Below are positions 6,075 through 33,509 of a DNA stretch of 45,146 nt, one piece after another. Position numbers and translations under genes: made by a program. The stretch comes from a virus: the IMG/VR virus record IMGVR_UViG_3300037760_000304, positions 1 through 45,146 of that record; one strand, given 5' to 3'. The notes beneath the pieces were generated by a model that ran no database searches, was not told the DNA's origin, and saw only the letters and a list, made by a program, of their open reading frames with translations. How positions within the stretch are numbered: position 1 is the first letter of the stretch; the number at the start of each line of letters is the position of its first letter.

Positions 6075-6442
6075 AGGGGCGGCGCACCGTGAGGCCCGAG
6101 GAGGGAATGCAGCGCTCCCTCATGGAGTGGCTCGGCCTCCAGCACCCGGCGCTCGCCGAGCTGACCATCCACGTCCCGAACGGCCGCGACGCCGGCAGCG
6201 CGAAGCTGGGTGGGCTCTGGAAGGCGATGGGGGTCAAGGCCGGCGTGCCCGATGTCCTGTGCTTCGCGCGCAGGGGCGGGCTCGCCGGCCTCGCCCTCGA
6301 GCTCAAGGTGGCGCCGAACAAGCCGAGCGCTGAGCAGCTCTGGTGGCGCGCGCGGCTCTCCTCGGAGGGCTGGGCCTCGGGCTTCGCCTACACGCTCGAC
6401 GAGGCGATGGCGGCCTTCGACCGCTACGCGCGGCTGACCTAG
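6071..6442 (+). CDS. VRR-NUC (PD-(D/E)xK) nuclease
   Basis: GVPDVLCF...GLALELKV...LSSEGW matches the VRR-NUC core D...ExK. GTG start overlaps the upstream stop. Confidence 0.8.
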   Translation: MKGRRTVRPEEGMQRSLMEWLGLQHPALAELTIHVPNGRDAGSAKLGGLWKAMGVKAGVPDVLCFARRGGLAGLALELKVAPNKPSAEQLWWRARLSSEGWASGFAYTLDEAMAAFDRYARLT

Positions 6443-8220
6443 CCGAACCGCGGACGCTCCGGCAGCATCCCCGTGCGCCCGCCGCGGCGCATGAAGCCGA
6501 TCCCGCGGTTCGTGCCCAGGCTGTTCGGCTCGAGCTGGCCCGCCCTGAGCCCGGTGTCGCCGAGCCAGCGCCGCATGTCGGCGTCGGCCTTCTCCTGCTT
6601 GCGGCGCTCGAGGAAGCGCGCGGTGTTCCCCTCGACGCGCTCTGAGTAGTAGGCGACGGCGATCGCCAGCGCGTCGATCCGGTCGTCGAAGTGCAGGCAG
6701 CCCGGCGCCCCGGTGATGCGCGAGAGCTGGTGCGCGAGCGAGCGGTAGATCCAGCCGTCGCCGCCGTACTGCTGCGCCAGGCGGATGTCCTCTCGGAGCA
6801 CGGCCGGCGAGGTGACGAGCTTGTGGTTCGCCATGACCGGCTCGAGCGTCCGAAGGATGCGCTGCTCCTTCTTGACGTTGTGGTTCACCTCGATCACCTG
6901 GCACGGGTAGACGTCGCGCAGCGCGTCCTTTAGGAGCTTGTTGTAGGAGCCCCCGCCGAAGTTGGCCTCGGTGACGATCGCGTTCACGCCGTAGCGCGAG
7001 GCGGCGATGGCGATGCGGGGCAGCGCCTCGAAGCCGTCGATCTCCGCGCCGAGCCCGAGGAGGAAGAGCTGGCCGTTGAGGATCTTGACCGCCACCCACG
7101 CGAGCTCGTCGCGCCCGCGGCCGGAGGGGTCGACGGCGAGGATGCCGCCCTCGTAGGGGCGGAACTCACCGAGGACCGTGAGCGGCTTCACGTAGTAGTC
7201 GCCGTCGCGCCCGAGGCACTGGATGTCCGCGATGGCGAGGAGCTCGTCGGAGCTCCACATGACCTGCTCGGGGGCCGCGCGCGGATCGAGGTCCATGACG
7301 ATCAGGTCGCGCAGGCGCAGCGGGTAGAGGTCCGCGTCGCTGAGGCTCGTGTCGAGTTGGAACTGGAGCGCGAAGCCCTGGCGGCGGTACTCGATCTCGG
7401 CGGCGCGCAGCGTCTCCTCGTCGTAGCGCTCGGGATCGGTCGGCGTGCCGGCCAGCAGGGGGTCGGCGGCGAGCTCCTCTCGGATCGCCTTGGCGAGTTG
7501 GCCGCGGTAGGGCCCGAGTCCGTTCGGATCGGGGAAGCGCGCGGGCCAGCGGCGCACGGTGTAGCCCTTCTCCTCGAAGCCGTTGTAGATCGAGTCCTCT
7601 GTCTGAGGCGTGCCCAGGTTGCGGATGAAGCCGTTGGGGTTGAGCAGGGCGCCGCCGAGCTCGGCCTGGCGCGCAGCGAGCTTCATGCGGGCGCCGGGGG
7701 TCTCCGAGTTGTTCGGGATCTCCACGTCGTCGCCGCACACCGCGTCGGCGTGGAAGCCCGTCGCCTGGCCCATGATGCCCACGACGCGGACGCTCGTGTC
7801 GGCCATCGGGATTGCACCGGCTACGTCGAAGGCGAGCGCGTTGTCGCGCTCGATGCCCTTGCGCGGCTTCAGGTGCCGCACGGGCTCGAACTCCTCGAGG
7901 ATCCTTCGGACGTACTGCCCGTTCGCCAGGGCGCGCGTCTCGGCCGCGCTCGCTGTCACGATGCGCTTCTGCGGCCACCAGTAGAGGAGCCAGACGAGCA
8001 GGAAGTTCGTGATGGCCGACTTGCCGACGCCGCGGTAGCCCATGACGAGGGCCTTCTTGGGCGCGTGCTGCAAGAAGATGGCGATCTCGTACTGGCGCTT
8101 GGTCGGCTCGCCGAGCCCCATCGCCGTGAAGCCCGCGTAGAGCCACGCGCGGAAGTCGCGCAGGCGCGAGTCGTGCTCGTCGTCGTCGGGGAAGATCCAG
8201 CCTGGGCGGTTGCCGATCAC
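6439..8220 (-). CDS. terL: Terminase large subunit (T7 gp19-like)
   Basis: 593 aa. The following parallel T7 gp19 segments: VMGYRGVGKS, VCGDDVEIPNNSETPGAR, NLGTPQTE, GTPTDPERYD, FALQFQLDTSLSDADLYPLRLRD, ILAVDPSGRGRDE, TEANFGGG, TLEPVM, FDDRIDALA. Confidence 0.95.
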   Translation of the reverse strand: MIGNRPGWIFPDDDEHDSRLRDFRAWLYAGFTAMGLGEPTKRQYEIAIFLQHAPKKALVMGYRGVGKSAITNFLLVWLLYWWPQKRIVTASAAETRALANGQYVRRILEEFEPVRHLKPRKGIERDNALAFDVAGAIPMADTSVRVVGIMGQATGFHADAVCGDDVEIPNNSETPGARMKLAARQAELGGALLNPNGFIRNLGTPQTEDSIYNGFEEKGYTVRRWPARFPDPNGLGPYRGQLAKAIREELAADPLLAGTPTDPERYDEETLRAAEIEYRRQGFALQFQLDTSLSDADLYPLRLRDLIVMDLDPRAAPEQVMWSSDELLAIADIQCLGRDGDYYVKPLTVLGEFRPYEGGILAVDPSGRGRDELAWVAVKILNGQLFLLGLGAEIDGFEALPRIAIAASRYGVNAIVTEANFGGGSYNKLLKDALRDVYPCQVIEVNHNVKKEQRILRTLEPVMANHKLVTSPAVLREDIRLAQQYGGDGWIYRSLAHQLSRITGAPGCLHFDDRIDALAIAVAYYSERVEGNTARFLERRKQEKADADMRRWLGDTGLRAGQLEPNSLGTNRGIGFMRRGGRTGMLPERPRFG

Positions 8221-8513
8221 TCGTAGGGGAGCCGCTCTGGCAGCACGAAGCCGCGGCTGGGCTTGAGCTCCTGCGCAGCGGCCTTGGCCGGGCCGCGGAT
8301 GGAGGGGACGGCCGGCGCCGCGTCGGGGCCGTAGCGCACGGTGTCGATGGTGAAGCCCTGCTCGTTGAGGAAGCCCCTGATCTCGCGCAGCGTGCGCGCG
8401 ACCGTGGGGCTGGGCCGACCGCCGGCGGCCAGGTCCGCGAGGTGCTGCGAGCTGACGCGCACGAAGCGGTCGTACAGCTCGACGAGCTCCTGCTCTCGGC
8501 GGTCGGGGATCAC
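8217..8513 (-). CDS. terS: Terminase small subunit (T7 gp18-like), 98 aa from GTG 8513 (track ORF extends to 8600)
   Basis: ATGA overlap with terL. ADLAAGGRPSPTVARTLREIRGFLNEQGFTI parallels T7 gp18 ADLSDHERRSPQLYNAINKLLDRHKFQI. GTG 8513 follows the upstream stop (8516) and GGAGG. The longer form would overlap the upstream gene by 85 nt. Confidence 0.65.
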   Translation of the reverse strand: MIPDRREQELVELYDRFVRVSSQHLADLAAGGRPSPTVARTLREIRGFLNEQGFTIDTVRYGPDAAPAVPSIRGPAKAAAQELKPSRGFVLPERLPYE

Positions 8514-8515
8514 GC

Positions 8516-8824
8516 TCAGTTGCCGCCTCCGACGCCGCCGTAGGCGTCGATCAAGTCCTGGATCTGCTTCTTGTGGTAGGCCGCGCAGGTGCCCTCCCAC
8601 GTCTCGGGGATCCGATCGCAGTAGGTGCGAACGGTGTGTGTGATTCCGCCAGCCTCGACCTGCGCCTCGTAGTCAGGTAGTTGAGCCATGTCAGTGACGA
8701 TCTCCTCGATGGTGACGATGCGGGACTCGTGAATGCGTGTCCGAATCAGCATAACCCAGGTTGGGGTTAGGCCGGTGAGGAGCGCAGCTAGGACGATGAG
8801 CAGCGGCGTCCGCCATCGACTCAC
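8516..8824 (-). CDS. Single-TM protein (102 aa), lysis-cassette position (i-spanin/holin-like)
   Basis: N-terminal TM TPLLIVLAALLTGLTPTWVMLI. ATGA overlap with the upstream gene. Confidence 0.55.
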   Translation of the reverse strand: MSRWRTPLLIVLAALLTGLTPTWVMLIRTRIHESRIVTIEEIVTDMAQLPDYEAQVEAGGITHTVRTYCDRIPETWEGTCAAYHKKQIQDLIDAYGGVGGGN

Positions 8825-9150
8825 CCTTTTGGTCCCTGGTCCTTGGGCAGGTTGGCCGTGAACTTGTCGACGACATCCTGCACGGTGTCTCGGTGTCGTT
8901 CCATCTGGTGCGCGAAGGCGGCCGTGAGCTTGTCGAGGGACTTGTCGTAGGCGATGCGCTCGCGGTCGAGGCTCTCTGTGAACTTGTCGACAGAGCGGTC
9001 TCGCGCTGCGCGCTCCGCGGCGAGCTCGTCGCTGAACGCCTTGAGCGTGCGCGGGCCGGTGACGACGATCAGGTAGAAGGCGAGGCCGGCGAAGCCGACG
9101 GACGACGCGATCTCTACCCAGCCGATGTCGAAGGGGCCCGCTTCCATCAT
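8821..9150 (-). CDS. Single-TM plus coiled-coil protein (109 aa), holin/i-spanin-like
   Basis: TM IASSVGFAGLAFYLIVVTG then a charged helical tail. ATGA overlaps on both sides. Confidence 0.55.
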   Translation of the reverse strand: MMEAGPFDIGWVEIASSVGFAGLAFYLIVVTGPRTLKAFSDELAAERAARDRSVDKFTESLDRERIAYDKSLDKLTAAFAHQMERHRDTVQDVVDKFTANLPKDQGPKG

Positions 9151-9419
9151 GGCCCGGTCGGAACGTTGACGCGCTCCGCGAGCGTCTCTACGCGGTCGGC
9201 GAGGTAGGTGAGCGCCTGCACGGTTTCGGAGCGCTGCGCTTGGTTCGACGACTCGAAGGCCGCGATGAGCTTCGTTCGCGCCTCCCTCTCGTCGCGCAGA
9301 TCGTCGCGCGCCTCGACCGCCAGGCGTCGCGCGGTCGAGTGCAGGATGAGCAGGCTGGCGAGCTGCGCTGCGCCGAACACGGCGAGGCCGAGCGAGAATA
9401 TTTGCAGGTCGGACATCAT
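9147..9419 (-). CDS. Single-TM plus coiled-coil protein (90 aa), holin-like (T7 gp17.5 position)
   Basis: TM IFSLGLAVFGAAQLASLLIL then a charged tail. Lies directly after the gp16-like gene. Confidence 0.55.
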   Translation of the reverse strand: MMSDLQIFSLGLAVFGAAQLASLLILHSTARRLAVEARDDLRDEREARTKLIAAFESSNQAQRSETVQALTYLADRVETLAERVNVPTGP

Positions 9420-12400
9420 GGACCCCCTGGCGTCACGAGGCCGGGCAGGCGCAGCGATGCACCTCCGGGCAGGAGCGACGGTAGCCCCTGTCCGCTCTGC
9501 GCCCGACGCCGGCGCACTCCGAGGGCATCGTACTGCCTCCGCAGGTCGGAGTATTCCCTGAGCACCTGATCGAAGGCGCGATCGCGGTACTGGCGGATGA
9601 CGTTCTCGACGAGCGAGACGCGCGGGCTCTCCAGGTCCGGGGTGCTCTCGGCGGGGAGAGCCTGGTAGCGGCGGCTCGTGACGAGCTGGCGCAGGGCCGT
9701 GCGCAGGTCGCGCCCGCCCACCTGCACGTCACCGTGGAGCTGTTGCCAGCGATCGAAGGCGGTCTGCCCGCTCGTGCTGCGGTAGCTGAGCAGGTCGACG
9801 CCGCCGCGAGTCGGCGAGGGGGCGCCGAAGCCGTGGTTGAGCATGGCGAGCTGCTGGTCGACCACGCTGTCCGAGACCTCGCTGTAGGCGACCGGCATCC
9901 AGATCCGGGTGAGCTGGCCCAGCGTGTCCTCGCCGAGGCGCCGGGTGCGCTCGATCGGCTCGCCGAGCACGTTGCGCCGCGGCTCCAGGCCGGCGGAGAG
10001 GCCGGGGATGCGGTTGCGGATCGCGTCGAGGATGCCGCGCACCTCGCGCATGTTCTGGTCGCCCGCGAGGTCGACACCGGAGGCGATGGCGGAGGGGACG
10101 ACGAACGAGCCGACGAGCTGCTCGAGGAAGCGCTCGGCGCGGCGCTCGGGCGCCGAGAGGGCCTCCACGAAGTTGCGGATGCCCGTCAGGTAGCTCTTCT
10201 GCGTGAGCTGGTTCGAGAGCGCGACGACGGCGCTGGCGCCGAGGGTTGTCACCGTGTCCTGATCGCTCGTGTCCGTCCACTGCGCGTATTCGTGCAGGTC
10301 GGCGGCGACACCCACGATGGCGGCGAAGGGGTCGAGGCGCTCGTAGCTGATCCAGCGGTCGCCGACGCGCACGGAGTAGGGGCGCCAACCGGCGTTCATC
10401 AGCGCGGCGCGGCGGTTCGGCTCGTCAGGCCCGCGGCCGGTGATCTTCCCGGATGCGGTCATGCCGTAGAAGAAGCCGAGCGTCCCGAAGCCGAGCGTGA
10501 GCCGGCCCACCGCGTCGGCCTTGCGCGCGGGCGAGCCGGAGAGCATGTCCTTCAGGAAGACGTTGCGTGTCCGCTCGAGCGCCGGCATTGGCAGCAGGCC
10601 GATCTTGGCTCCTGCCAGGTGCCCAGGGCCGAGCACGTCGACACGGCGCGCGGCGAACTTGAGCAGGTTGATCGGGGTGCCGATGAAGGGCACGACGAGC
10701 CGCAGTGTCGGGTGCGCCACAACGGCGTCCTGGAGCTTCTTCGAGAGCGTGCCCTTCTCCAGTCCGCCGGTGGCCGTCACCTCGTCGGCGCGCTGGAGCG
10801 CGGTGTCGATGATCTCCTTCGAGCGCTCGTCGAAGTTCGCTTGCAGGTACGCCTTCGCGTCGTCGAGCGCGGCCGTGCCGCGCAGGCCCTTGCGGTTGGC
10901 GAGCTCCATGCCCTCGCGCAGGAGCCTCCCGCTCGTCTCGGCCTGGCCGTCGCGGATGACCCTCGCCATGCCGCTCTCGACGTACTCGGCGAGCGCCTCG
11001 TCCTTGAGGCCGAGCTTCATCGCGTCGCGGTGGAGCTCGTCGCGCGAGACCGAGCGGAAGTTGATCTGTTTCGTGAACTCGTCGATGGAACCGATCGCCG
11101 CGGACGGGAGCGGGATGATCGTGTCCATCGCGCGGAGCATGGCGCCGCCGAACTCGCTGCGCGCGAAGCTGCGGACGAGCGGGCTGCCGGCCTCGCCCAG
11201 GATGTCGGGCGAGAAGGCTCCGGGGCGGCGCGTGCCGTTGATCTCGGCTCGCAGGTGAGCGCTCGACTCCGCGTACTTGCCGGCCGTGCGCAGTTCGGGG
11301 CGCACCAGCTTCGGCGAGAGCACTCCGCGTCGGTTGCGGAATGCCTGACCGGCGACCCTGAATGCCTCGCTCGTTCCCCGGAAGAGCCCCGTGAACTGCC
11401 GCACGCCGCTCGCGATCTCGTCGGCGTTGCCGATCAGGGCGCCACCGAGCACGCGCTCGAGCGGGCGCGTCATGCTCGTGAGCACCGGGCCGACGAAGTT
11501 GATCGTGAGCGTGCGCGCGCCGGAGAGCAGGCCGTTGATCCAGACCTCGTTGAGGATGTTGAAGCCGTGGTCGGCGCCGACGGAGCGCACCACGCTCCCC
11601 AAGCCAGCGGCGCCGGCGAGACCGCCTTCGTCCATCGCCGCGCGGATCTTGCGCAGCGCGTCAAGGGCGCGCGCCTCGCCGCCGAGCTCGCGCAGGATGC
11701 CGTCCGCCTGCTCGTCGACCGCGCGCTGGAAGATGCCCGGTCCCTCCTCGCGCAGCTTCTTGGTCAGGGTGCGCAGGGGGATGCCGAAGGCGCGCAGCGC
11801 GCGCCCGGTGTCGGCCTGGAGGCTGAGGACGCCGGCTGTGAGGTCGGTGAAGAACTGCACATCCTCGAACGCGCGCGCGAGCTTGATCTTGCGCAGCGCC
11901 GGGTCGAACTCGGCGAGCGCTGCGTCGAGCGAGCGCTGCACCGAGCCAGACGTCGAGAGCATGATCGTCTCCCACGCCTGGGTGCGCGTGGTGAGCGCGC
12001 GCAGGTCGCCCGCGTCCTTGGCGATCGCAGCGCGCAGCACGTCGCGGCTGTCGCCGGCCTGCACGATGTCGGACACCGCGGCCTCGCTGGCGAGCCGCAT
12101 CTCCTCGAGGCTGCGCGGGGAGAGCGACTCCAGGTTGCCGGCGCCGTAGGTGCGCGAGAGGCCCTCGACGACGCGGACGAAGCGCGCGATGCCCTTCGGC
12201 CCCTGGAAGCGAGCGAGGTTGAGGTCGTTCGGGGCGAGCAGGTTGTCCGAGAGCTCCTCCGGGGTCATGCCCCGCGGCTGCGTCTTCGGGTCGATGCCGG
12301 CGCGCGCGGCGCGGCGGGCGTCGAGCACCCCGGCAACCGCCTCCGGATCAACAGGCAGCGGTGCCAGCGGCTCCTTGCGGGGCGCGCGCGCTTCGAGCTG

Positions 12401-13279
12401 GCGCTGGACCGCGGCCACCGCCTCGGGGTCGTCGAAGAGCTCGCGGAGCAGGCCCTCCGGGTCGTCCGGGATCGGCTCCTCCTTCGGCGCTTTCCCGACC
12501 TCGATCGTCTCCTGCGGCCGGTTGGGGTCGCGCGGCGCCGGGTCGAGCGCCCGCGCGATCTCCTCGGGCGGCGCGGCCTCACGCACCTCGCGCGCGACGG
12601 CCTTGAGGCTCTTGCCCTCCTGGAGCGCCCGTCGCTGCGCACGCAGGCCGCGGAGGCCCAGGGCGAAGAGGTCGACGAAGCCGCCGACCAGCGCGCCCTC
12701 GAGCGCGTTCTTGAGCCTGCCCTCGACCTCCCCGTCATCGGGGTCGGCGGCGAGGAACTCGGTGACGGGGTTCGAGAGCGAGGGGAACTGCTCGAGCAGG
12801 TTGGAGAGCCGCTCCTCGTGGGCCTCGAACACGGCGAAGTCGGCGATGGCCCCGGCGGCGGCCGTCTTCCCCACGGCGACGAGTCGCGCCTGGGCGGCCG
12901 TGCGCGCAGCGGTGCGGGCGGCGTTGCCGGCGGAGAAGAGCCGCGAGGCCGCGCCGACGGCGGGCAGTCCGACCCCGACGAAGCCGGTCGCGAAGGTGGC
13001 GACCCCCTCGACGATGCCGCCGGCCAGGGTGCGGCTCGACCCGAGGAGCCGCAGGTCCGCATCGGGCAGCGCGTCGAAGGCCAGCGCGTCGACCAGGCCG
13101 TACAGGCTGTCCGCGGCCCCCAGGACGCCGCGCACGGGCGCGAGGGCGATGTCGCCGACCACCCCGCCGAACGAGAGCTCCTCGTCGTCACGGGCTCGCT
13201 GGGCGCCCTGGGCGCCTCCTCGCGCGAAGCGGGACGTGAGACCGGGGGCGACGACCTGATCGAATCCGAAGTCGGGCAT
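9416..13279 (-). CDS. Internal virion/ejection protein, gp16-like by size and position (1287 aa from ATG 13279)
   Basis: Track ORF 9416..13345. ATG 13279 shares one base with the upstream TGA (TGATG). T7 gp16 is 1318 aa at the same position. No lytic transglycosylase motif seen. Confidence 0.75.
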   Translation of the reverse strand: MPDFGFDQVVAPGLTSRFARGGAQGAQRARDDEELSFGGVVGDIALAPVRGVLGAADSLYGLVDALAFDALPDADLRLLGSSRTLAGGIVEGVATFATGFVGVGLPAVGAASRLFSAGNAARTAARTAAQARLVAVGKTAAAGAIADFAVFEAHEERLSNLLEQFPSLSNPVTEFLAADPDDGEVEGRLKNALEGALVGGFVDLFALGLRGLRAQRRALQEGKSLKAVAREVREAAPPEEIARALDPAPRDPNRPQETIEVGKAPKEEPIPDDPEGLLRELFDDPEAVAAVQRQLEARAPRKEPLAPLPVDPEAVAGVLDARRAARAGIDPKTQPRGMTPEELSDNLLAPNDLNLARFQGPKGIARFVRVVEGLSRTYGAGNLESLSPRSLEEMRLASEAAVSDIVQAGDSRDVLRAAIAKDAGDLRALTTRTQAWETIMLSTSGSVQRSLDAALAEFDPALRKIKLARAFEDVQFFTDLTAGVLSLQADTGRALRAFGIPLRTLTKKLREEGPGIFQRAVDEQADGILRELGGEARALDALRKIRAAMDEGGLAGAAGLGSVVRSVGADHGFNILNEVWINGLLSGARTLTINFVGPVLTSMTRPLERVLGGALIGNADEIASGVRQFTGLFRGTSEAFRVAGQAFRNRRGVLSPKLVRPELRTAGKYAESSAHLRAEINGTRRPGAFSPDILGEAGSPLVRSFARSEFGGAMLRAMDTIIPLPSAAIGSIDEFTKQINFRSVSRDELHRDAMKLGLKDEALAEYVESGMARVIRDGQAETSGRLLREGMELANRKGLRGTAALDDAKAYLQANFDERSKEIIDTALQRADEVTATGGLEKGTLSKKLQDAVVAHPTLRLVVPFIGTPINLLKFAARRVDVLGPGHLAGAKIGLLPMPALERTRNVFLKDMLSGSPARKADAVGRLTLGFGTLGFFYGMTASGKITGRGPDEPNRRAALMNAGWRPYSVRVGDRWISYERLDPFAAIVGVAADLHEYAQWTDTSDQDTVTTLGASAVVALSNQLTQKSYLTGIRNFVEALSAPERRAERFLEQLVGSFVVPSAIASGVDLAGDQNMREVRGILDAIRNRIPGLSAGLEPRRNVLGEPIERTRRLGEDTLGQLTRIWMPVAYSEVSDSVVDQQLAMLNHGFGAPSPTRGGVDLLSYRSTSGQTAFDRWQQLHGDVQVGGRDLRTALRQLVTSRRYQALPAESTPDLESPRVSLVENVIRQYRDRAFDQVLREYSDLRRQYDALGVRRRRAQSGQGLPSLLPGGASLRLPGLVTPGGP

Positions 13280-16565: not shown

Positions 16566-17043
16566 GATGGAGGCGGAACGGCCAGAACGGCACGGCCGGA
16601 TCGGCCTGGTAGACCTCGCGGCCAGCGTAGACCTCCGCGCCCAGCCGCCGCAAGAACCGCAGGTGCACCACGTTCCGCGAGTCGACCACGTTCACCCCCG
16701 CGCGACCGGCCAACATCCGCGGCAGATAGGCCCGCGCGACGAGCAGGAGCTCGCGCCGCAGACGAGCGATCTCGTCGCTGCCCACCATCCAGATCAGCAC
16801 CTCGCCGGCGGCGCTCCCCGCGTGCACGGCGCCGAACAGCGCGACGGGCCGCCCGTCGGCTTCAGCGAGGTAGCTGCTCTCGCCCTCTCGGATGCCCCGC
16901 TCGAGCTGCGCGGCCGGCGGAACGGGCCCGATGGCGGCCAGGAGCTCCGCGCGGTCTGCGGCCCGAAGGCGCTCGGCCATCGCCGCACCGTCGCCGGCTC
17001 GGGCCGCTCGAACCGTCACCCGCCCTGTGCGTTCATCCGCCAT
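16510..17043 (-). CDS. gp13-position internal virion/assembly protein (177 aa)
   Basis: Track ORF between the gp12-like and gp14-like genes. Overlaps neighbours by 28 and 56 nt. Called by position only. Confidence 0.55.
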   Translation of the reverse strand: MADERTGRVTVRAARAGDGAAMAERLRAADRAELLAAIGPVPPAAQLERGIREGESSYLAEADGRPVALFGAVHAGSAAGEVLIWMVGSDEIARLRRELLLVARAYLPRMLAGRAGVNVVDSRNVVHLRFLRRLGAEVYAGREVYQADPAVPFWPFRLHHVQPAHRRRRHRGRPAGR

Positions 17044-20707: not shown

Positions 20708-20719
20708 GGTGGTGGCCGA

Positions 20720-20737
20720 GGCCCGCGCAGGCGGGCC
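20720..20737 (-). terminator. Hairpin GGCCCGC-CUGC-GCGGGCC between capsid and tail tubular A
   Basis: 7-bp GC stem with a 4-nt loop in the 42-nt gap after the capsid stop. Same location as T7 T-phi. No U-tract. Confidence 0.4.
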
Positions 20738-20749
20738 CCGGCGGGAGGA

Positions 20750-21781: not shown

Positions 21782-21906
21782 GCCGTCACCTCCTTCTGGA
21801 GAGGGTATCGAGGATCACGCTGGCCTTGATCCCAACCCTTCCATCGCTGCCCGGGCGCGAGTTGTCCGCCGCGGCGGGCTCGGCCGTGCTGGCGACGGCG
21901 TGGCGT

Positions 21907-21945
21907 CGGCACGTCGCCGGTTCCAGCAGGGCCGACGACGTGCCG
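21907..21945 (-). terminator. Strong stem-loop (14-bp stem with one G.U, 11-nt loop) in the 182-nt gap upstream of the capsid gene
   Basis: Minus-strand RNA CGGCACGUCGUCGG...CCGGCGACGUGCCG. Could be a terminator, an RNA-processing site or an mRNA stabiliser. Confidence 0.45.
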
Positions 21946-21963
21946 AAGCTAGGAGACCATGGG

Positions 21964-22308
21964 CTACTCCGTCAAGCCCGCGATCTGCTCGAGCTCTCCG
22001 GGCTCGAACAGCTCGAGGAACCACGCGGGCGCCTCGGAGAGGGGTCCGGCCCAGGCCACGTCCGCATCGAGACGCCGCCCCCATGCGCCGCCCCTGGCGA
22101 CCTGGACCGGGACGTAGACGGCCCCGCCCGCGAGCGGGACCGAGACCATGAGGTCGGCCTCGCCGACGACCGCCACGGCGGTCTGGTTGACCCGCACGTC
22201 GCCGTGCAGGTATCCGGTGGCCCGGATCGCCGTGGACGCGGCGCAGCCCGCGAGCAGCGCCAGGGCGAGGATCAGGACACGCGCGGGCGCACGAGGGGAT
22301 CGTTCCAT
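21964..22308 (-). CDS. Lipoprotein (114 aa), lipobox LLAG/C
   Basis: MERSPRAPARVLILALALLAGCAAS. SD AAGGAG lies 7 nt upstream of ATG 22308. High GC3 throughout. Inserted between the scaffold and capsid genes. Confidence 0.7.
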   Translation of the reverse strand: MERSPRAPARVLILALALLAGCAASTAIRATGYLHGDVRVNQTAVAVVGEADLMVSVPLAGGAVYVPVQVARGGAWGRRLDADVAWAGPLSEAPAWFLELFEPGELEQIAGLTE

Positions 22309-23078
22309 CCACCACTCCTTTCGGCCTGCTCGACGACCCACGGGGACGCCGCGAGGCGTGCCTGCACGTCGGCGCGGTAGGCCGGGTCCATCTGGTACTT
22401 GAGGTTGCCGGCCTTGTCGGTCTCCCGCATGGCGCGCTGGTAGTCGTCGCGATCGCGGTAGCCGCTCGTGTGCGCCGCGGCCTGATTGCCGACCACGCGC
22501 ATGGCCGGGTCGCCCCCGACGGCGCCGCGCCAGCGCGCGTGCAGCCCGGCCACGAGGGTCTGGAACATGCCGGGGTCGGTGCAGGTGTTGAACTGCTGGC
22601 GCTCCTGCTGAGTCAGGTTGTCGCGCGCCCAGCCCATCATGGCCTGCCAGGTCTGTTCGCCGCCCACGGACTGCTGGGCCTGCATCTCGGCGAGGCGCCC
22701 TTGGGCGACCATGCCGGAGAGGCCCATGTCGACGGCCTCGCGCTCGTAGCCCTGGGAGGCGAGCTTCTGGTAGCTCTGGTCGGAGAGCTTGCCGCTGTTC
22801 GCCACGTACTCCTCGGCGAAGGGGCGCATCCGGTCGGCGAAGGGCGCGCGCTGCTCGGGTATGCGCGTTGGCTGGCCGTTGGGCTGAGGAGTCGCGGGCT
22901 GGGCCGGCTGGGCCTGCGTGCGCGAGCTGAGCGCGCGCTCGGCCTCCTGGTGCATGGCGATCACCTGGTCGATCGTCTTGCCGGCGTACTTCTCGGGCAC
23001 CTGGGGCGGTGCCTGCGAGTTGTCGACGTGGGCCTGGGCGGGCGCGGCGTTGGCCGCGGGCTGGATGAGCTCGGGCAT
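22272..23078 (-). CDS. Scaffolding protein (gp9 position), 268 aa from ATG 23078
   Basis: Track ORF 22272..23111. TGATG overlap with the upstream stop. Gln/Ala/Pro-rich. Lies between portal and capsid. Confidence 0.65.
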   Translation of the reverse strand: MPELIQPAANAAPAQAHVDNSQAPPQVPEKYAGKTIDQVIAMHQEAERALSSRTQAQPAQPATPQPNGQPTRIPEQRAPFADRMRPFAEEYVANSGKLSDQSYQKLASQGYEREAVDMGLSGMVAQGRLAEMQAQQSVGGEQTWQAMMGWARDNLTQQERQQFNTCTDPGMFQTLVAGLHARWRGAVGGDPAMRVVGNQAAAHTSGYRDRDDYQRAMRETDKAGNLKYQMDPAYRADVQARLAASPWVVEQAERSGGWNDPLVRPRVS

Positions 23079-23479
23079 CAGCGCACGTCCTGGAAGTGGG
23101 TGCCTGTCCACGCCTTGCCCTGCGCGGCCATCTCGTCGATGTGCTCCTGGCTCGGCTGGTCGACGGTCACTCGAGTTCCGAAACGCAGGAACCTGTCGAC
23201 GGAGGCGGCCGAGATCACCTTGGCGTCGAGGACGCGCCGCTGGCTGAGCAGCTCCTCCATCTCCGGCGAGCCGGCGGAGCCCGCGCGGTGGTCCGCCTGG
23301 GCGATGCCGGCGGCGGCCATGCGGCTGCCGATGAGCTTCTTCGCCAGCGGGCTCTTGCTCATGTTGTCGACGACTCCGGGCGCGCTGGCGCGGGTCGGGA
23401 CGGGCGCGGAAGGGGACTCGTGGGCGGCCGGGATGCGGTTCTTGTCCGCGCTCGAGATGCTCTTGGGGTTCACGCTCAT
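23078..23479 (-). CDS. Hypothetical protein (133 aa) between portal and scaffold
   Basis: Track ORF with an ATGA overlap on the portal stop. Confidence 0.55.
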   Translation of the reverse strand: MSVNPKSISSADKNRIPAAHESPSAPVPTRASAPGVVDNMSKSPLAKKLIGSRMAAAGIAQADHRAGSAGSPEMEELLSQRRVLDAKVISAASVDRFLRFGTRVTVDQPSQEHIDEMAAQGKAWTGTHFQDVR

Positions 23480-25029
23480 TGGGATGCTCCGTTGGTGGGG
23501 GCGAGTCGCTCGCGCACGGCCCCGCCGATCTGGCGGGTGAGCTCGGGCGCGACGTTCTGGAGGGCCGCCTGCTGCTGGGCGGCGTTGCTCATCTTCGTGG
23601 CCTCGTCGGGCTTGCGCAGGATGTTCAGGCTCACCCCGGAGGACTTCGCGAGCATCTCGAAGACGAGCCGCGTGTCGAGCTGGTAGTTGGTCGCCTGCTC
23701 GACCGGGACGAGCGCGAGGGACTGGAGGAAGCGCTGGAGCTGCTGGAACTCGATGCCGCGGCCGAGGCCCTCGATGCCGGCCACGATCTTGCGCTTGATC
23801 GAGCCGTCGTTGGAGAGGTCGTTGAGGATGCCGGCGCGCACGAGCGCGGCCTCTTCCATGCGCAGCACGGGGGTCTGGAGCTCCAGGGCGAGGCCGGAGT
23901 AGACGCCGCCAAGGGTCGTGTCGAGCTCGCGCGCGAGGGTCTGGACCTCCAGGGCGGTGACGCGCTCGGCGTCGCGCTGGATCGAGTCGAGCATGTGGAA
24001 GGAGCGCTTCAGGTCCTCCCGCAGGCTGGCGCGCATCTCGGCGACGACGCGGATGTCCTGGAGCTTGTCGACCTGGAGGGCCTTCACGTCCTCCGGGTTG
24101 CCGTGCATGTGGCCCCCGTTGGGCGTGGCGGAGAGCCGCTCGGGGGTGACGGTCGAGCCCTCGCGGATCATCCAGACGAGGCGCGCGGCCTCGGCGGCGA
24201 GCTCGACGCCGGCCTGGGTGAGGCCCTCGAGGCTGGCGAGGTCGCCGATCAGCCGCTCGACGAGCGAGCGCCCGTAGGGGGCGCCGCAGCAGGGGTCGAA
24301 GCGCGCCGGGTGGATGGGGAGCTTGTCGAGCGGGTATTCGGCGTCGGTGCCCTCGATCCGGTTGCCGTCGACCTCCTGGTAGGCGTCGAAGGTCTTGGTT
24401 CCCGGGCGGCGCACCCAGCCGGAGAAGATCGTGAGGCTGTCGTCCTCGTCCTCGTTCGTCGCCGGGTTGGCCGCGGCGCGCACTTCCGGGGGGGCCGCGC
24501 TGCGCCGAATGGTCTCGGTCGTGACGACGGCGAGCAGGTTGTCGGCGGCGTCGAAGTCGACGACGTAGCTGGGCAGCCGCCAGAGGCGGTAGCCCCCTTC
24601 CTTCATGCGATCGAGCAGGACGGAGCCGCCGACGACGAGGTTCTCGATGGCCTCCTTCGCGCGCACGCGGAAGGTCTCGGTTTCCACGTGGAACTGGAGT
24701 GTCGCGGCGCGCGTCTCGGCGTCGCGGCGCGCGGCATCGACGGATGCGCCGTCGTCGCTCTCGAGCGCCTGGGCGACGGCCAGCGGGTCGAGCTGGTACT
24801 CGAAGAAGCGCAGGCCCGGGGGGAACAGGGTGAGCAGGAGCTTGCTCGTCAGGCTGTTCGCGCCCTGGGCGCCGATCGACTGGTAGGGGTCGTCGAACTC
24901 GTCGGAGCCACCGAAGCTCTCCTCGGGGAAGAGCGTTGGCAGGGTGAGGCTCGCGTTGTCGCGCGCGCGCTCGAGGTAGGGCTGGCGGACGATGGCGAGC
25001 TGTCCGTAGAGCTCAGCGAGGGTCGGCAT
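23476..25029 (-). CDS. Portal / head-tail connector (T7 gp8-like)
   Basis: The following parallel T7 gp8: RQPYLERARDNASLTLPTLFP, YGRSLVERLIGDLASLEGLTQA, ERVTALEVQTLARELDTTLGGVYSGLALELQTPVLR. Confidence 0.95.
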   Translation of the reverse strand: MPTLAELYGQLAIVRQPYLERARDNASLTLPTLFPEESFGGSDEFDDPYQSIGAQGANSLTSKLLLTLFPPGLRFFEYQLDPLAVAQALESDDGASVDAARRDAETRAATLQFHVETETFRVRAKEAIENLVVGGSVLLDRMKEGGYRLWRLPSYVVDFDAADNLLAVVTTETIRRSAAPPEVRAAANPATNEDEDDSLTIFSGWVRRPGTKTFDAYQEVDGNRIEGTDAEYPLDKLPIHPARFDPCCGAPYGRSLVERLIGDLASLEGLTQAGVELAAEAARLVWMIREGSTVTPERLSATPNGGHMHGNPEDVKALQVDKLQDIRVVAEMRASLREDLKRSFHMLDSIQRDAERVTALEVQTLARELDTTLGGVYSGLALELQTPVLRMEEAALVRAGILNDLSNDGSIKRKIVAGIEGLGRGIEFQQLQRFLQSLALVPVEQATNYQLDTRLVFEMLAKSSGVSLNILRKPDEATKMSNAAQQQAALQNVAPELTRQIGGAVRERLAPTNGASQ

Positions 25030-25206
25030 CTAGAGCCCCACGTTGCGGGGCGGGAGGATCCGCAGGGAGGCGATGCCGAAGGGCGCATCCTCGTCGCCGG
25101 GGTTGTCCGGGTCGAAGGGCACTTCGGGCGCGGCCTGCCCGGGCTCGCGGGCCGAGGGGGGCGGCGGCGGAGGCGGCGGCGCATCGGGGTAGCTCGACAT
25201 GCACAT
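25030..25206 (-). CDS. Possible small Pro-rich protein (58 aa, PPPPPPPP run)
   Basis: In-frame ATG of track ORF 25030..25347 with GGGAGG upstream. Its stop TAG abuts the portal ATG. Confidence 0.4.
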   Translation of the reverse strand: MCMSSYPDAPPPPPPPPSAREPGQAAPEVPFDPDNPGDEDAPFGIASLRILPPRNVGL

Positions 25207-25208
25207 GC

Positions 25209-25460
25209 TCAGCCTCCCGCCTGGCGCTCGAACTCGGCGAGGATCTCTTCGACGAGCCCGCGGCGGCCGATGGAGCGTGCGACGGCGAGCGGATCGCGCA
25301 GCTCCTCGAGCGAGGGGAGCCAGTTCGGGGCGAGGCGATCGAGCCACACGGCGAACTCCTGGGAGATGATCGGCGCGGGCGTCGGCTCGCCGTTCGGCGT
25401 GGGTCCGCGCGCCGCGGCGCGGACGCGGGCAAGGCGGGTCGGGCGTCCAGGCTGTTCCAT
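25209..25460 (-). CDS. Hypothetical protein (83 aa), first gene of the late minus-strand operon
   Basis: In-frame ATG 25460 of track ORF 25209..25511. Protein-like C-terminal part. Confidence 0.5.
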   Translation of the reverse strand: MEQPGRPTRLARVRAAARGPTPNGEPTPAPIISQEFAVWLDRLAPNWLPSLEELRDPLAVARSIGRRGLVEEILAEFERQAGG

Positions 25461-25501: not shown

Positions 25502-28270
25502 ATGCCCGCACCCTACTCCGAGACCACCTACGTTGGGGTCTCTGGCGTCCAGGTCTACACGATCGGCTTCCCGTTCCTCAAGGCGTCGTACCTGTCGGTC
25601 TCGGTGACGCCAGTGGGGGGATCGCCTTCGCCGGCCACCTTCACGGTCATCAACGACCTCGCGGACGTCTCGATCAGCTCGCCTCTGATCGCGGGCGGAG
25701 AGACCATCCTGATTCAGCGGATGACCTCGCTCGAGGCGAGGCTCGTCGACTGGGAGAGCCCTGCGGCGCTGCGCGAGGACCAGATGGACCTCGCCGACGA
25801 CCAGTTCTTCCACCTGCTCCAGGAGCTCTACGACGACCTGGCGGGGTTGACGGTCATCGTCAACGAGCAGTCGCTCCCGCCGGGCGGTGCCGCGGGGGAC
25901 GTGCTGACGAAGGCCAGCGCGGTCGACTACGACGTGTTCTGGACGCCCCCTCCGGGCGGCGGTTCGGGCAGCGGGATCACCGGGGGCCTCAACGTCGGCG
26001 GCGGCGAGGAGGTGTTCCGCGACGTGACGGGCGCGGCGCTGGCCTTCCGCACGCTGGTCGCCGGCGCGGGCATCACGATCACGCAGGTCGGGGACACGCT
26101 CGAGCTGGAGTCGACGGCCGCGGGCGGCGGCGAGGTGAACACCGGCTCGAACGTGGGCGTGGACGGCACGGGCGTCTTCGACGGGAAGGTGGGCGCCGAT
26201 CTTCAGTTCCGCCACATCGCGGCGCTCGCCGGCGGGGGCCTCCAGGTCGACTTCGACGCGGGCCAGAACGACATCGACATCTCGATCGCGACCAGCGGCG
26301 TCACGCAGACGAAGATCGCTGACGGCCATGTGACGCTGACGAAGCTTGCCGACATCGCGCAGCACACCCTCCTAGGGCGCTTCGGCGCGGGCTCTGGTGT
26401 GCCGCAGCAGCTCCGCGCGAGCGACCTCGTGCTCGTCACCAGTGCGGCGACGGCCGACCTGCTGCTGCTCTACAAGTCGACGGGCGAGCTGCGTGCGATC
26501 TCGCCTTCGGACGTGCTGCCGCCCGGGAGCGTGGGCAACCCCGACCTCTCGCAGATGCCGGGGAACAGCCTGAAGGGCAACGCGATGGGCAGCGCGGCGA
26601 CGCCGCAGGATCTCATCATCTCCTCGATCACGACGGAGGCGGTGCCGGTCACGGCGGACTTCTCGATCGGCTTCACGGCTTCGGGCAACCTGCGGAAGTT
26701 CCCGCTGTCGGCCCTGCCCTCCGCCGGCGCGGCGGTCTCCTTCGTGACCATCGCCTGCCCGTCGGGCACGAACCCGGTGGCGGACCTGGCGGCCGACACG
26801 CTGACCCTGCTCGCGCCCGGCGCCGTCTCGGTCGTGGGCAGCGCGGCCGCCGACTCGGTGACGCTCGACCTGGCCGCGAACGGGGTGACGAACCTGCACC
26901 TCGCGGACATGGCGGCCGACCGGCTGAAGGGCCGGCTGTCCGGCTCCGGCGACCCGCAGGACATCGCGCTCGCGGACATGACGGAGGTGGGCGTTCCCGC
27001 GGCGGGCCACAAGCTGCTCGGCTACTCGGGCGGCGCGCTGCGCGTCTTCGACGTGGGCAACCTGCCGTCGGTCGGCGGCGGCACGGTCAACGCCGGGGCC
27101 AACATCAACGTCGGCGGGGTCGGCGTCTTCGACAGCATCAACGCCGACACGCTCCAGTTCCGCGGCATCAACGCGATCACGCTGGGGGGCATCCAAGTCA
27201 CGCTCGACGCGGGCAACGCCGAGATCGACCTGGAGATCGCCGACGGCGGCGTGACCAACGTGAAGCTCGCGAACGTCGGCTCGAGCACACTCAAGGGCCG
27301 CACGACCGCGGGCACCGGGACACCCCAAGACCTCGTTGAGACGGACTTCACCACCGGCGTCCCGTCGACGACGAACACGCTGATCTTTTGGGCTGGCCCG
27401 AACCTGCGTAAGGCCACCTTCCAGTCGATCGCCCCCTCGCTTTCGCTCACCGAAAGCCACCTGCCGAACATTGGCGCCTGGACAATCGTTGGGCGCAACT
27501 CGTCCTCGACGGGCTCTCGCCAGGCGTTCACGGTGCCGGGCCTCGCGCTGGCGACGCCGGCCGGCTCCGATCTCGTACTGGGCGCGCTGGCCTCCGGCGA
27601 GCTTCGGCACTTCACCGTCTCCTCGCTTGCCACGGGCGGCATCGTCGCCGAGGACGTCTTCTGGGCCACCTGGCACTCGCAGGGTGCGCGCGTCGTGGAC
27701 TTCCAGAACACCTCCGCGCAGCCCGGCAGCCCCACGAACTACGACGCCTACATCCTCCCCGCGTCGCCCACGGGCGTCAACTGGTCGGGGCAGGGCAACA
27801 AGGTCGCCCTTTTCAAGGACATCTGGTACTTCCGCAGCTTCACGGACGGCCTGCACGTGCACGTCAAGAAGAGCTCGACGCACCACTTCGCCGGCGTCGG
27901 CGCGATTTGGGAAGCGACGCAGGGCGAGTGGTATCCCGACATCGAAATCTACTCCGCGGTCGAGCACTACACAGGGAAGCGCAGCCGCGAGACGGGCGGC
28001 CCCCTCTACCGCAAGTCGCTCTTCTTCAACATGAGCGGCGCCGTCTCCACGGTTGCCGCCCACGGCATCAGCGGCATCCTCACAGGCGACGCGCAGACGA
28101 CGGTGAAGGCCACGATGACGGCGGGCAGCCAGTGCGTGCAGCTCCCGCAGAACTTCTCCGGCTTCGTCGTCGAGCTCAAGGTGAACACGACCAACGTGCT
28201 CGTCGACTCGAACCCCGCGGTCTCCTCCTCCTTCCAGGTCGTCGCCACAGTCGAGGCGGCCAAGGCATAA
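25502..28270 (+). CDS. Tail fibre (T7 gp17-type N-terminal adaptor domain, repeat-rich shaft, distinct C-terminal domain)
   Basis: GGAGG at 25490-25494 then ATG 25502. The N-terminus (...ILIQRMTSLEARLVDWESPAALREDQMDLADDQ...QE) parallels T7 gp17 (...[33 protein letters not shown]...EE). Confidence 0.9.
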   Translation: MPAPYSETTYVGVSGVQVYTIGFPFLKASYLSVSVTPVGGSPSPATFTVINDLADVSISSPLIAGGETILIQRMTSLEARLVDWESPAALREDQMDLADDQFFHLLQELYDDLAGLTVIVNEQSLPPGGAAGDVLTKASAVDYDVFWTPPPGGGSGSGITGGLNVGGGEEVFRDVTGAALAFRTLVAGAGITITQVGDTLELESTAAGGGEVNTGSNVGVDGTGVFDGKVGADLQFRHIAALAGGGLQVDFDAGQNDIDISIATSGVTQTKIADGHVTLTKLADIAQHTLLGRFGAGSGVPQQLRASDLVLVTSAATADLLLLYKSTGELRAISPSDVLPPGSVGNPDLSQMPGNSLKGNAMGSAATPQDLIISSITTEAVPVTADFSIGFTASGNLRKFPLSALPSAGAAVSFVTIACPSGTNPVADLAADTLTLLAPGAVSVVGSAAADSVTLDLAANGVTNLHLADMAADRLKGRLSGSGDPQDIALADMTEVGVPAAGHKLLGYSGGALRVFDVGNLPSVGGGTVNAGANINVGGVGVFDSINADTLQFRGINAITLGGIQVTLDAGNAEIDLEIADGGVTNVKLANVGSSTLKGRTTAGTGTPQDLVETDFTTGVPSTTNTLIFWAGPNLRKATFQSIAPSLSLTESHLPNIGAWTIVGRNSSSTGSRQAFTVPGLALATPAGSDLVLGALASGELRHFTVSSLATGGIVAEDVFWATWHSQGARVVDFQNTSAQPGSPTNYDAYILPASPTGVNWSGQGNKVALFKDIWYFRSFTDGLHVHVKKSSTHHFAGVGAIWEATQGEWYPDIEIYSAVEHYTGKRSRETGGPLYRKSLFFNMSGAVSTVAAHGISGILTGDAQTTVKATMTAGSQCVQLPQNFSGFVVELKVNTTNVLVDSNPAVSSSFQVVATVEAAKA
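25973..27631 (+). repeat. Internal protein-level repeats within the tail fibre (about five divergent ~55-100-aa units)
   Basis: GVTQTKIADGHVTLTKLADIAQHTLLGRFGAGSGVPQQL, GVTNLHLADMAADRLKGRLSGSGDPQDI, GVTNVKLANVGSSTLKGRTTAGTGTPQDL and LSQMPGNSLKGNAMGSAATPQDL. GGGEVNTGSNVGVDGTGVFDG...LQFRHI also parallels GGGTVNAGANINVGGVGVFDS...LQFRGI. Confidence 0.8.
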
Positions 28271-33507: not shown

Positions 33508-33509
33508 AT

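Follow-up and report, generated by a model that had tools for sequence, protein, structure and literature searches.

Can a podovirus that builds a T7-type particle dispense with a phage-encoded RNA polymerase (RNAP), and if so, what transcribes and replicates its genome? The question is raised by the contig IMGVR_UViG_3300037760_000304 (JGI metagenome), the genome of an uncultivated podovirus, which was analysed over its whole length of 45,146 bp (hereafter, the window). An earlier reading of the DNA (the original prediction) had described a full T7-type virion module accompanied by an integrase and a regulatory switch but by no recognisable RNA or DNA polymerase, and had taken this to point to a temperate, host-polymerase-dependent lineage that kept only the T7 particle. 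The analysis presented here suggests that the window is probably a complete podovirus of the T7/Autographiviridae type, belonging to a small GC-rich clade, which has parted with its RNAP on its own branch and which has a host-dependent, temperate-type organisation.

Bases 1-127 of the window were identical to bases 45020-45146, an exact match of prefix and suffix over 127 nt that leaves 45,019 bp of unique sequence and marks the genome as complete, either circular or terminally redundant. Because the contig closes on itself, the absence of a gene from it is meaningful. The gene lying across the circular junction encodes a small coiled-coil protein. The GC content was about 70% along the window, and both GC and codon bias were uniform. 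Since such a high GC content makes long spurious open reading frames (ORFs) in every frame, genes were called by third-position GC together with a codon model trained on long ORFs. About 60 genes were called, those within 1-2200 being the least certain of the window. The virion and early ORFs were intact, tightly packed and showed a strong codon bias. The coding strand alternates from the late genes (minus) to the fibre and integrase operons (plus), then to the replication operon (minus) and on to the early-right operon (plus). With these three strand switches, the window does not have the colinear, single-strand genome order (early, replication, structural) of Autographiviridae.

Among GenBank phages, neither megablast with the virion module nor blastn with the replication genes gave a match, and an exact-protein look-up found no identical protein on record for the large terminase subunit (TerL). 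An NCBIfam scan gave nothing above cutoffs. No Rfam family reached its gathering score in the window, and near the integrase only noise was seen (E up to 5). A tRNA-Arg(gcg) of 96 nt called by ARAGORN at 9980-10075 (+), antisense within the gp16-like gene, is probably a false positive, as no Rfam tRNA was found at gathering score.

The T7-type virion module was located on the minus strand at 6439-25460 by profile hidden Markov models from Pfam and PHROGs (Table 1). Every element that had been proposed, from the portal (T7 gene 8) to TerL (gene 19), was present at or very near its predicted position. The fibre of the gp17 type was likewise recovered where it had been placed, in a plus-strand operon opposite the portal operon, with 41 bp between the start of the leftward late operon and the fibre start codon. 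The full morphogenesis module characteristic of Autographiviridae is therefore present, the gp15 slot being assigned by synteny and relatives' homology only. Profiles built from four sequences missed the window counterparts of gp15, gp16 and the small terminase subunit (TerS); because these counterparts are too diverged, the three slots were assigned from PHROGs, synteny or relatives. The 902-aa protein in the gp15 slot had no family or PDB match, and the 98-aa protein in the TerS slot had no family match and left the local TerS profile silent. Four small genes lie between gp16 and TerL, two of which encode an N-terminal transmembrane (TM) helix followed by a coiled coil. The holin and TerS labels are thus candidate assignments, made from position and transmembrane prediction only. 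A further holin-like protein of 57 aa, with two predicted TM helices, is encoded at 30252-30425 (-) in a small leftward block distant from the T7 holin slot.

The search for polymerases was made independent of the gene calls. Every stop-to-stop segment of at least 30 aa in the six frames of the circularised genome was searched using hmmsearch --max (filters off) with profiles built from T7, CRP-125, TRX32-1 and RHEph01. These were the nearest isolates by nozzle tblastn (about 30% identity), and each of them carries RNAP, primase-helicase and DNA polymerase (DNAP). The best E values were 0.31 for RNAP, 3.6 for DNAP and 7.1 for primase-helicase, with 2.4 for gp2.5, 0.49 for gp6 and 2.7 for endonuclease I, while the positive controls were recovered at 2.7e-100 (portal), 1.3e-152 (TerL) and 1.9e-20 (gp13). 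Pfam scans of the called genes revealed no polymerase, primase, replicative helicase or sigma domain and neither PF00940 nor PF14700. No pattern resembling T7 motif A occurred in any frame, and PDB sequence searches with five large proteins gave nothing significant. The single-subunit RNAP that marks Autographiviridae is thus absent from the window. The Pfam and PHROGs search for RNAP and DNAP families that the original prediction had proposed matched none, in line with its claim that RNAP, DNAP and primase-helicase are all missing.

To place this absence, relatives were identified by portal and TerL searches of a collection of 5.8 billion proteins. A clade was found with portals 62%, 52%, 46%, 45% and 44% identical to that of the window and TerLs 64-48% identical; beyond it, identity falls to at most 38% (portal) and 44% (TerL) for ordinary Autographiviridae. 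The clade members for which DNA was fetched were all GC-rich (66-71%). The two nearest informative relatives are designated relA (portal 52% identical) and relB (portal 45%). The former (JGI Ga0180007_10001134, the same as IMGVR_UViG_3300014656_000066) was rebuilt from three loci to 38,241 bp, its contig being unclosed; four copies of ACGGCGGCGTCTGGC, a 15-bp tandem repeat, at the contig start probably broke the assembly. It was also recovered in an ENA assembly. The latter (Logan SRR14194075_48723) was covered over 33.3 of 41.7 kb. An IMG/VR portal scan found no further member, and integrase-alignment scans of JGI metagenomes and IMG/VR found relA only.

The window, relA and relB share a layout in which the fibre operon diverges from the portal operon; beyond the fibre operon come small genes, a long stretch of non-coding DNA and an operon that closes with the integrase. 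The order of the T7-type virion genes is the same in all three, at 35-53% identity. Among the small proteins, the one encoded at 8821-9150 has a homolog in relB (42% identical), and the 83-aa protein at the head of the late operon has a weak one there. The nozzles of relB and of the loci L013 and L016 are 1564-1588 aa long (L012 14918-19684; L013 6689-11401; L016 start cut-1113), about 550 aa longer than those of the window (1038 aa) and relA (1028 aa); the window nozzle aligns to only the first ~830 residues of the long forms, which have a large extra C-terminal part.

The difference lies directly after the integrase. In relA this position is occupied by an RNAP of 804 aa, with PF14700 and PF00940, a local profile match of 2.2e-115 and motifs A and C, which can be aligned over its full length with Autographiviridae RNAPs (27-30% identical). 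In relB it is occupied by a 782-aa PF00940 protein. The integrase of the window is orthologous to those of relA and relB (46-47% identical and colinear from the MTS N-terminus), and its stop codon (36054) overlaps the stop codon of a convergent DUF7694 gene (36051), so that the RNAP slot contains neither a remnant nor a gap. The DUF7694 gene and the adjoining gene for a 321-aa coiled-coil protein are sited elsewhere in relA, which argues for rearrangement and not a clean deletion.

The early genes shared by the window and relA encode DUF7694 (65% identical), the DUF1376-like N-terminal domain of the candidate initiator (63%), RecT (53%), YqaJ (50%), the 321-aa protein (41%) and the DnaC-like protein (29%). 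No T7 DNAP, primase-helicase, gp2.5, gp6 or endonuclease I was found in the 38.2 kb of the unclosed relA contig, and relB had, within the 33.3 of 41.7 kb covered, no T7 replication genes and no match to the early module of the window. Because at least relA has these host-dependent replication genes as well, the early module must be older than the window branch. At the position of the window's XRE-family regulator, relA has a ribbon-helix-helix regulator and a second, unrelated tyrosine integrase (L014 17360-18672). A block of about 9 kb in the early-right region, encoding orphans of 523 and 548 aa, a methylase and a nuclease, was found in the window only.

A neighbour-joining (NJ) tree was calculated from TerL, portal and major capsid protein (1,328 ungapped columns, six taxa), with CRP-125, RHEph01 and T7 as outgroups. 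The clade of window, relA and relB was recovered in 300/300 bootstraps, and relA and relB were sisters in 259/300. Over the ungapped columns the three window proteins were 31-41% identical to those of T7, CRP-125 and RHEph01. The window virion proteins scored 200-414 bits against RNAP-bearing Autographiviridae and at most 44 bits against the RNAP-less phages SIO1 and Pf-WMP4, for which TerL gave 40 and 26 bits, the portal at most 25 bits and the nozzle no significant match. The core virion genes thus fall within the Autographiviridae radiation in this small six-taxon tree and far from SIO1 and Pf-WMP4, a comparison that the original prediction had called for. The RNAP-less state of the window is accordingly independent of that in Zobellviridae and Saffermanviridae. 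Since all outgroups carry RNAP, parsimony favours loss or replacement of RNAP on the window branch, which we take as the best reading of these data.

The proposal of a temperate, host-polymerase-dependent lineage that kept only the T7 particle is sustained as far as the particle, the missing polymerases and the integrase are concerned, and host polymerases would be needed unless RNAP is supplied in trans. Three parts of it need revision. Only one of the three readable clade genomes is RNAP-less, which is not yet a lineage; the early module is shared with relA and the integrase operon with both relatives, the event specific to the window being the loss or replacement of RNAP; and the temperate lifestyle is presumptive.

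The most serious alternative is that the RNAP-less state is ancestral, the window representing a temperate T7-type phage from before RNAP. In that case the relA/relB branch would have gained an int-RNAP cassette, perhaps through exchange at the prophage edge nearest attP. As the window is sister to relA and relB and not nested among them, a gain in those two after an earlier loss has to be weighed, and inside the clade a single gain costs no more than a single loss. Reports on temperate T7-like phages commonly place the phage attachment site attP between int and RNAP (PMC12361551), which puts RNAP at a recombination-prone prophage edge, and Hardies et al. foresaw RNAP reassorting independently of tail genes (PMC4819975). 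However, the outgroups that are closer than SIO1 and Pf-WMP4 all have int-RNAP or RNAP, so a gain needs an earlier loss as well. The relA RNAP is 27-30% identical to those of the outgroups where TerL and portal are 30-38% identical, in the same rank order, which fits vertical descent, and the window retains an orthologous integrase at an equal operon position. An ancestral absence is consequently judged unlikely, and the integrase operon of the window is regarded as retained from temperate T7-like ancestry.

It is more improbable still that the window is non-autonomous or defective, either as a decaying prophage or as a genome whose RNAP-type late promoters are served in trans by a co-resident, RNAP-bearing relative. 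It is the single such genome known, and no host-type late promoter was found in it, the divergent late operons being only 41 bp apart. A leader of ~80 nt upstream of the capsid gene was conserved in all five clade members, RNAP-plus and RNAP-minus alike, with one copy per genome (nhmmer E 1e-10 to 7e-17). The leader is preceded by a stem-loop and sits roughly at the position of the T7 phi10 promoter and leader; its alignment gave no covariation support for a structured RNA. Were the leader a retained phage promoter, the window, its RNAP lost, could borrow a T7-type RNAP from such a relative for late transcription as a 'polymerase parasite' of temperate T7-like phages, an idea to which we attach very little probability. 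A multi-copy phage promoter was ruled out by the single copy in each genome. Since the RNAP-plus genomes, too, have just one copy and relA revealed no multi-copy promoter motif, nothing marks the leader as a promoter for a phage RNAP. The motif search, which compared relA with the window, found no convincing family; a GC-rich word recurs in relA, partly inside coding sequence. The intact, tightly packed and strongly codon-biased ORFs also speak against decay, as does the assembly of the window as a closed 45-kb circle and not inside a chromosome.

A cryptic polymerase might be hidden in the 548-aa or 523-aa orphan or in the proteins of the gp15/gp16 slots, three large proteins being without a family assignment, as in phage N4, where the virion RNAP is embedded in the homolog of internal virion protein D (IVP-D; PMC4819975). 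Single-sequence AlphaFold (AF2) models could not address this, those of the 548-aa and 404-aa proteins being too low in confidence for use (pLDDT 38 and 47). The gp16-slot protein was, however, colinear over residues 1-1284 with the corresponding proteins of relA (1248 aa) and relB (1247 aa) and matched the IVP-D of CRP-125 at E 7e-73. At 1287 aa it has a normal IVP-D length (compared with 1248, 1247, 1301 and 1318), and the gp15-slot protein is likewise equal in length to, and colinear with, those of relatives. These relatives have an RNAP of their own, and the gp16-slot protein thus contains no N4-style embedded polymerase. The orphans are the largest non-virion proteins of the window, yet both are shorter than any known single-subunit RNAP, the smallest extra RNAPs reported for Autographiviridae being of ~650 aa (PMC12361551). 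The 523-aa protein is mostly coiled coil and had no Pfam, PHROG, PDB or NCBIfam match beyond coiled-coil noise. The 548-aa protein has about 13 homologs among 1.84 billion representative proteins; the profile of this 13-member family found nothing significant in PDB (best E 0.043), no polymerase among it, and no Pfam domain was present in any member. With no motif-A-like pattern in any frame, the three suspects named in the original prediction (3554-5200, 42418-43989 and 9416-13279) bear no polymerase signature, and a hidden polymerase is hardly to be expected. The 548-aa family may be an enzyme, to judge by its invariant G, R, W, D..H and R residues. Residues 285-331 of the 548-aa protein matched E. 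coli YedJ, whose PDB entry describes it as uncharacterised, but very weakly (E 0.04).

The least credible explanation, an assembly chimera of a T7-like phage with an unrelated temperate phage, could appeal to the junctions being known from a metagenomic contig alone, but the independently assembled relA has the same mix of a T7-type virion with DUF1376, DnaC-like, YqaJ, RecT and DUF7694 genes, GC and codon bias are uniform, and the contig closes exactly.

Loss or replacement of RNAP on the branch of a host-dependent, temperate-type phage is accordingly preferred, and several observations weigh against it. It is drawn from one RNAP-less genome and three informative clade genomes, and scans of JGI metagenomes, IMG/VR and GTDB gave no more; the relA contig is unclosed and 8.3 kb of relB fell outside the comparison. 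The architecture of the window, including the int/DUF7694 junction, is known from the assembled contig alone, and the large orphans gave no usable fold model. The DUF1376 and DnaC-like calls score below curated thresholds. The divergent late operons lie just 41 bp apart. A scan of 20-40 kb for the sigma-70 consensus found 0 promoters where 0.3 were expected, a result that carries no information at 70% GC. The window yielded no recognisable late activator, CI-type repressor, excisionase, attP or endolysin. No prophage copy was found either in the pattern-based scans, which reach close relatives only; the scan of GTDB representative genomes with window TerL patterns returned only matches of about 40%, in Negativicutes chromosomes and in a Kluyvera fragment.

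In the integrase, the Arg, HxxR and Tyr boxes (ARAGEA, LRHTCLTRL and GYVHL) are conserved when it is aligned with those of relA and relB, indicating that the catalytic residues are intact. The tyrosine integrase of the original prediction was confirmed, except for its start, the true ATG being at 35206. Upstream, the 404-aa protein was 35% identical to a 378-aa protein of relA at the equivalent position. It gave weak PHROG matches to a DNA polymerase processivity factor (3.6e-9), a RusA-like protein and a primase C-terminal region, and has a long central coiled coil. It contains the sequence FNAEYLADLARAL, which we take to resemble a beta-clamp motif. A putative clamp-like role would fit the hijacking of a host polymerase.

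The non-coding region at the head of this operon has 60% pyrimidine on the plus strand and only 51 A. After it comes a TTGACA...TTTAGT pair with a spacing of about 20 nt. Long non-coding regions occupy the same syntenic place in relA (978 bp; L010 5131-6108, rich in G runs) and relB (736 bp; L012 2293-3028) and share no sequence similarity. The region is a candidate control region, origin or attP. The motif GACCTTGCAAC(T/G)GGAG was observed directly 5' of consecutive rightward genes of the operon, at 31749-31764, 32188-32203 and 35008-35023, with a variant near 33509; three matches at up to 2 mismatches were found against 0.09 expected. Its GGAG may be a ribosome-binding site, and the motif could be a shared translational or operator element.

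In the early region, the XRE-family switch gene and the Exo/RecT pair of the original prediction were both present, the latter with YqaJ and RecT each above the Pfam cutoffs, as for a RecET/Red-type pair. For its DUF1376 initiator and DnaC-like loader, an adjoining pair of candidates was seen; the loader has a PHROG match but Pfam and NCBIfam matches below cutoffs, and the DUF1376 call is sub-threshold (Table 1). The candidate pair is supported by gene order and by its conservation in relA. Just 5' of the XRE start, between two operons, a low-GC scan located the most AT-rich stretch of the early region, which contains the dyads listed in Table 1 and also gave a self-match when intergenic regions were compared. 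These palindromes beside the XRE gene are plausible operators.

The nuclease candidate at 6071-6442 is the last gene of the rightward early operon and is convergent with TerL; from our own reading of its sequence we assume it to be VRR-NUC-like. Several early genes have the start context GAGGAGAAGCA..ATGCCGACTGA in common (at 201-218, 950-975, 1210-1230, 1307-1326 and 42409-42428), with N-termini MPTD, MPTE or MIPTD; they may be paralogs or be regulated alike.

Table 1. Features of the window, with positions, strand (a point where no strand is assigned) and the evidence for each; E values follow the family names
Feature	Position	Strand	Evidence
N6/N4 DNA methyltransferase	2790-3524	+	PF01555 4e-31, phrog_67 1e-58
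548-aa orphan	3554-5200	+	PEPEPEPDP-type Pro/Glu linker, then Trp-rich globular domain
Nuclease candidate, Holliday-junction-resolvase-like	6071-6442	+	phrog_824 1e-28, phrog_5702 1e-10; GVPDV...LELK motif
TerL, T7 gp19 type	6439-8220	-	PF22530 4e-26, phrog_38 1e-79, local TerL profile 1.3e-152
98-aa protein, gp18 (small terminase) slot	8217-8513	-	Position only; overlaps TerL start
Two small proteins (109 and 90 aa), holin/spanin slot (T7 gp17.5/18.5)	8821-9419	-	Each one N-terminal TM helix, then coiled coil (hydropathy scan)
Internal virion protein D, gp16 slot, 1287 aa	9416-13279	-	phrog_6651 8e-54
Internal virion protein, gp15 slot, 902 aa	13279-15987	-	Synteny; 35% identical over full length to relA 905-aa protein
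gp14	15987-16565	-	PF24072 7.5e-19, phrog_805
gp13	16510-17043	-	phrog_308 9e-23, local gp13 profile 1.9e-20
Nozzle/tail tubular protein B (gp12), 1038 aa	17016-20132	-	PF25675 3.6e-136, phrog_457 2e-131
Tail tubular protein A (gp11)	20129-20707	-	PF17212 1.5e-26, phrog_446 1e-34
Major capsid protein, gp10A type	20750-21781	-	PF21703 8e-16, phrog_267 6e-52
Capsid-gene leader, ~80 nt	21832-21910	-	Alignment of clade; upstream of capsid gene
Scaffolding protein gp9	22272-23111	-	PF05396 1.5e-6, phrog_1052 4e-29
Portal gp8	23476-25029	-	PF12236 8e-47, phrog_449 2e-122, local profile 2.7e-100
Two small genes (56 and 83 aa), first in leftward late operon	25030-25460	-	Codon-usage calls
Divergent fibre operon	25502-28993	+	922-aa fibre 25502-28270 (PF03906 6e-7, T7 gp17 N-domain; PF10983, DUF2793), then 236-aa DUF2793 protein
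Non-coding pyrimidine-rich region, 511 bp	31236-31746	.	Four copies of CTGCTCTG; between leftward and rightward gene blocks
404-aa protein (32205-33419) and 388-aa DUF932 protein, both 5' of integrase	32205-34697	+	phrog_947 3.6e-9, phrog_19458 1.9e-5, PF06067 7e-6, phrog_1362 1e-22
Tyrosine integrase, 282 aa, start ATG 35206	35206-36054	+	PF00589 6e-26, phrog_1 4e-44
DUF7694 protein (141 aa) and 321-aa coiled-coil protein, end of leftward replication operon	36051-37351	-	PF24746 4e-19
DnaC/IstB-like AAA+ helicase-loader candidate	37348-38190	-	phrog_50 8.5e-15; PF01695 5.5e-5 (below threshold); NCBIfam domain-level matches only
Replication-initiator candidate, DUF1376-like N-domain	38111-38965	-	PF07120 1e-3 (19.9 bits; cutoff 30.1); phrog_9327 'primosomal protein' 9e-5
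XRE-family helix-turn-helix (HTH) regulator, 81 aa from ATG 39211	38966-39211	-	PF13560 6e-11, PF01381 3e-10; first gene of leftward replication operon
Operator-like dyads	39215-39263	.	Perfect 16-bp palindrome GGGAAGGATCCTTCCC and GGTCAAG-N9-CTTGACC
YqaJ/RecE-like exonuclease and RecT/Bet-like annealase	39744-41452	+	PF09588 6e-17, phrog_434 6e-46; PF03837 3e-22, phrog_252 3e-56
523-aa coiled-coil-rich orphan	42418-43989	+	Missing from relA and relB

From these components a possible infection cycle can be outlined. Because the closed genome has no RNAP, transcription must depend entirely on the host RNAP, barring an enzyme provided in trans. Host RNAP would transcribe both the 19-kb leftward late operon (25460 to 6439) and the fibre operon, probably assisted by a phage-encoded activator or antiterminator, for which the many small zinc-ribbon or HTH proteins are candidates. 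As the divergent late operons start so close together, the late promoters must lie partly within coding sequence, and the involvement of an activator is likely. A terminator scan of 20-40 kb found 3 where 6 were expected and was uninformative. For replication, the DUF1376-like initiator and the DnaC-like loader would recruit the host helicase and DNA polymerase III, and YqaJ and RecT could give recombination-dependent concatemers for the T7-type terminase.

The intact integrase would integrate the phage, and the XRE regulator with its adjacent palindromes could form the lysis-lysogeny switch. The lifestyle of the window, as deduced from its gene content, is thus presumably temperate. The label is provisional because the analysis revealed neither a prophage nor an attP, excisionase or CI-type repressor, and because T7-like cyanophages are cited, in the reference list of PMC12361551, as integrating without stable lysogeny. 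No tRNA fragment was detected by Rfam near the integrase, so there is no clue to a tRNA-derived attP. The original prediction had proposed that integrated copies be sought in GC-rich bacterial genomes; in the GTDB scan no GC-rich prophage was seen, at the close range that such TerL-pattern scans reach. T7-type TerL genes 38-42% identical to that of the window were observed in large chromosomal contigs of Veillonella, Phascolarctobacterium and Megasphaera (L006-L008) and of Bradyrhizobium (P0098, P0140); these loci are presumably integrated T7-type prophages.

Among known phages, the temperate Autographiviridae (Rhizobium phages RHEph01 and TRX32-1, Roseobacter CRP-125, Pseudomonas LUZ100, pelagiphage HTVC019P and Agrobacterium Pasto) resemble the window in combining a T7-type virion with a tyrosine integrase, with TerL about 41%, portal 33-37% and nozzle about 30% identical (PMC10134795). 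In these phages, a regulator-int-RNAP order is followed by T7-type single-stranded DNA-binding protein, endonuclease, primase-helicase, DNAP and exonuclease, nearly all on one strand, whereas the window has none of these enzymes. Their regulator is of the MarR type; the window has an XRE regulator, and its integrase is followed by the convergent DUF7694 gene. Temperate T7-like phages are established (Boeckman 2022, as cited in PMC10134795; LUZ100, HTVC019P, Pasto), and all those so described keep RNAP, having been found partly by RNAP searches.

The RNAP-less phages of the T7 supergroup, comprising the cobaviruses/Zobellviridae (SIO1, CRP-4/5), VpV262 and the Saffermanviridae (Pf-WMP3/4, PP, A-4L), share with the window a T7-related morphogenesis and the lack of a phage RNAP. 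They are presumed to use host RNAP throughout (PMC6918029, PMC6129581, PMC4819975) and are described as distant, ancient branches. A T7-like DNAP and primase-helicase of their own are annotated in SIO1 and Pf-WMP4; the window has neither, yet it has an integrase. Conversely, the DNAP-less Autographiviridae (the cyanopodoviruses of Cai et al. 2023; AG-1.2 to 1.4, AG-11) are like the window in having no phage DNAP, that of the host presumably being used (PMC12361551), but they keep RNAP, the bait gene of their discovery, whereas the window lacks both polymerases.

The closest parallel for the early region is lambdoid (lambda cro-O-P rightward; exo-bet leftward), with two divergent early operons around an operator-bearing region, one opening with a small HTH protein, then an initiator candidate and a loader candidate, and the other containing an exonuclease/annealase pair. 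The window differs in that no CI-type peptidase repressor, N or Q was detected, in that its proteins are DUF1376-like and IstB/DnaC-like and not homologs of lambda O and P, and in that its integrase lies in a separate operon. In the literature searched, the coverage of which is incomplete, no genome from within the RNAP-bearing radiation was reported to lack both polymerases and to carry a lambdoid-style early region.

Hardies et al. (2016) noted that the T7 tail subgroup 'so far corresponds to' the RNAP-defined subfamily and that RNAP 'could potentially reassort differently' (PMC4819975). Judged by its genes, the window would be an instance of such reassortment, independent of the tail genes. 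The RNAP-less phages of the T7 supergroup known so far are distant and keep DNAP, while the window sits among RNAP-bearing phages. The single-subunit RNAP is both the defining gene of Autographiviridae and the bait for finding relatives and prophages (PMC10134795, PMC12361551), and because it serves as bait, RNAP-less members would be systematically overlooked. The significance of one metagenomic genome is conditional on more members and on experiment. On that condition, the window and its RNAP-bearing relatives relA and relB form a matched pair that bears on how a 19-kb T7-type late operon runs without a phage enzyme and on whether RNAP moves as a cassette at the integrase/att edge. Both questions bear in turn on how lytic T7-like phages may have arisen from temperate ancestors.

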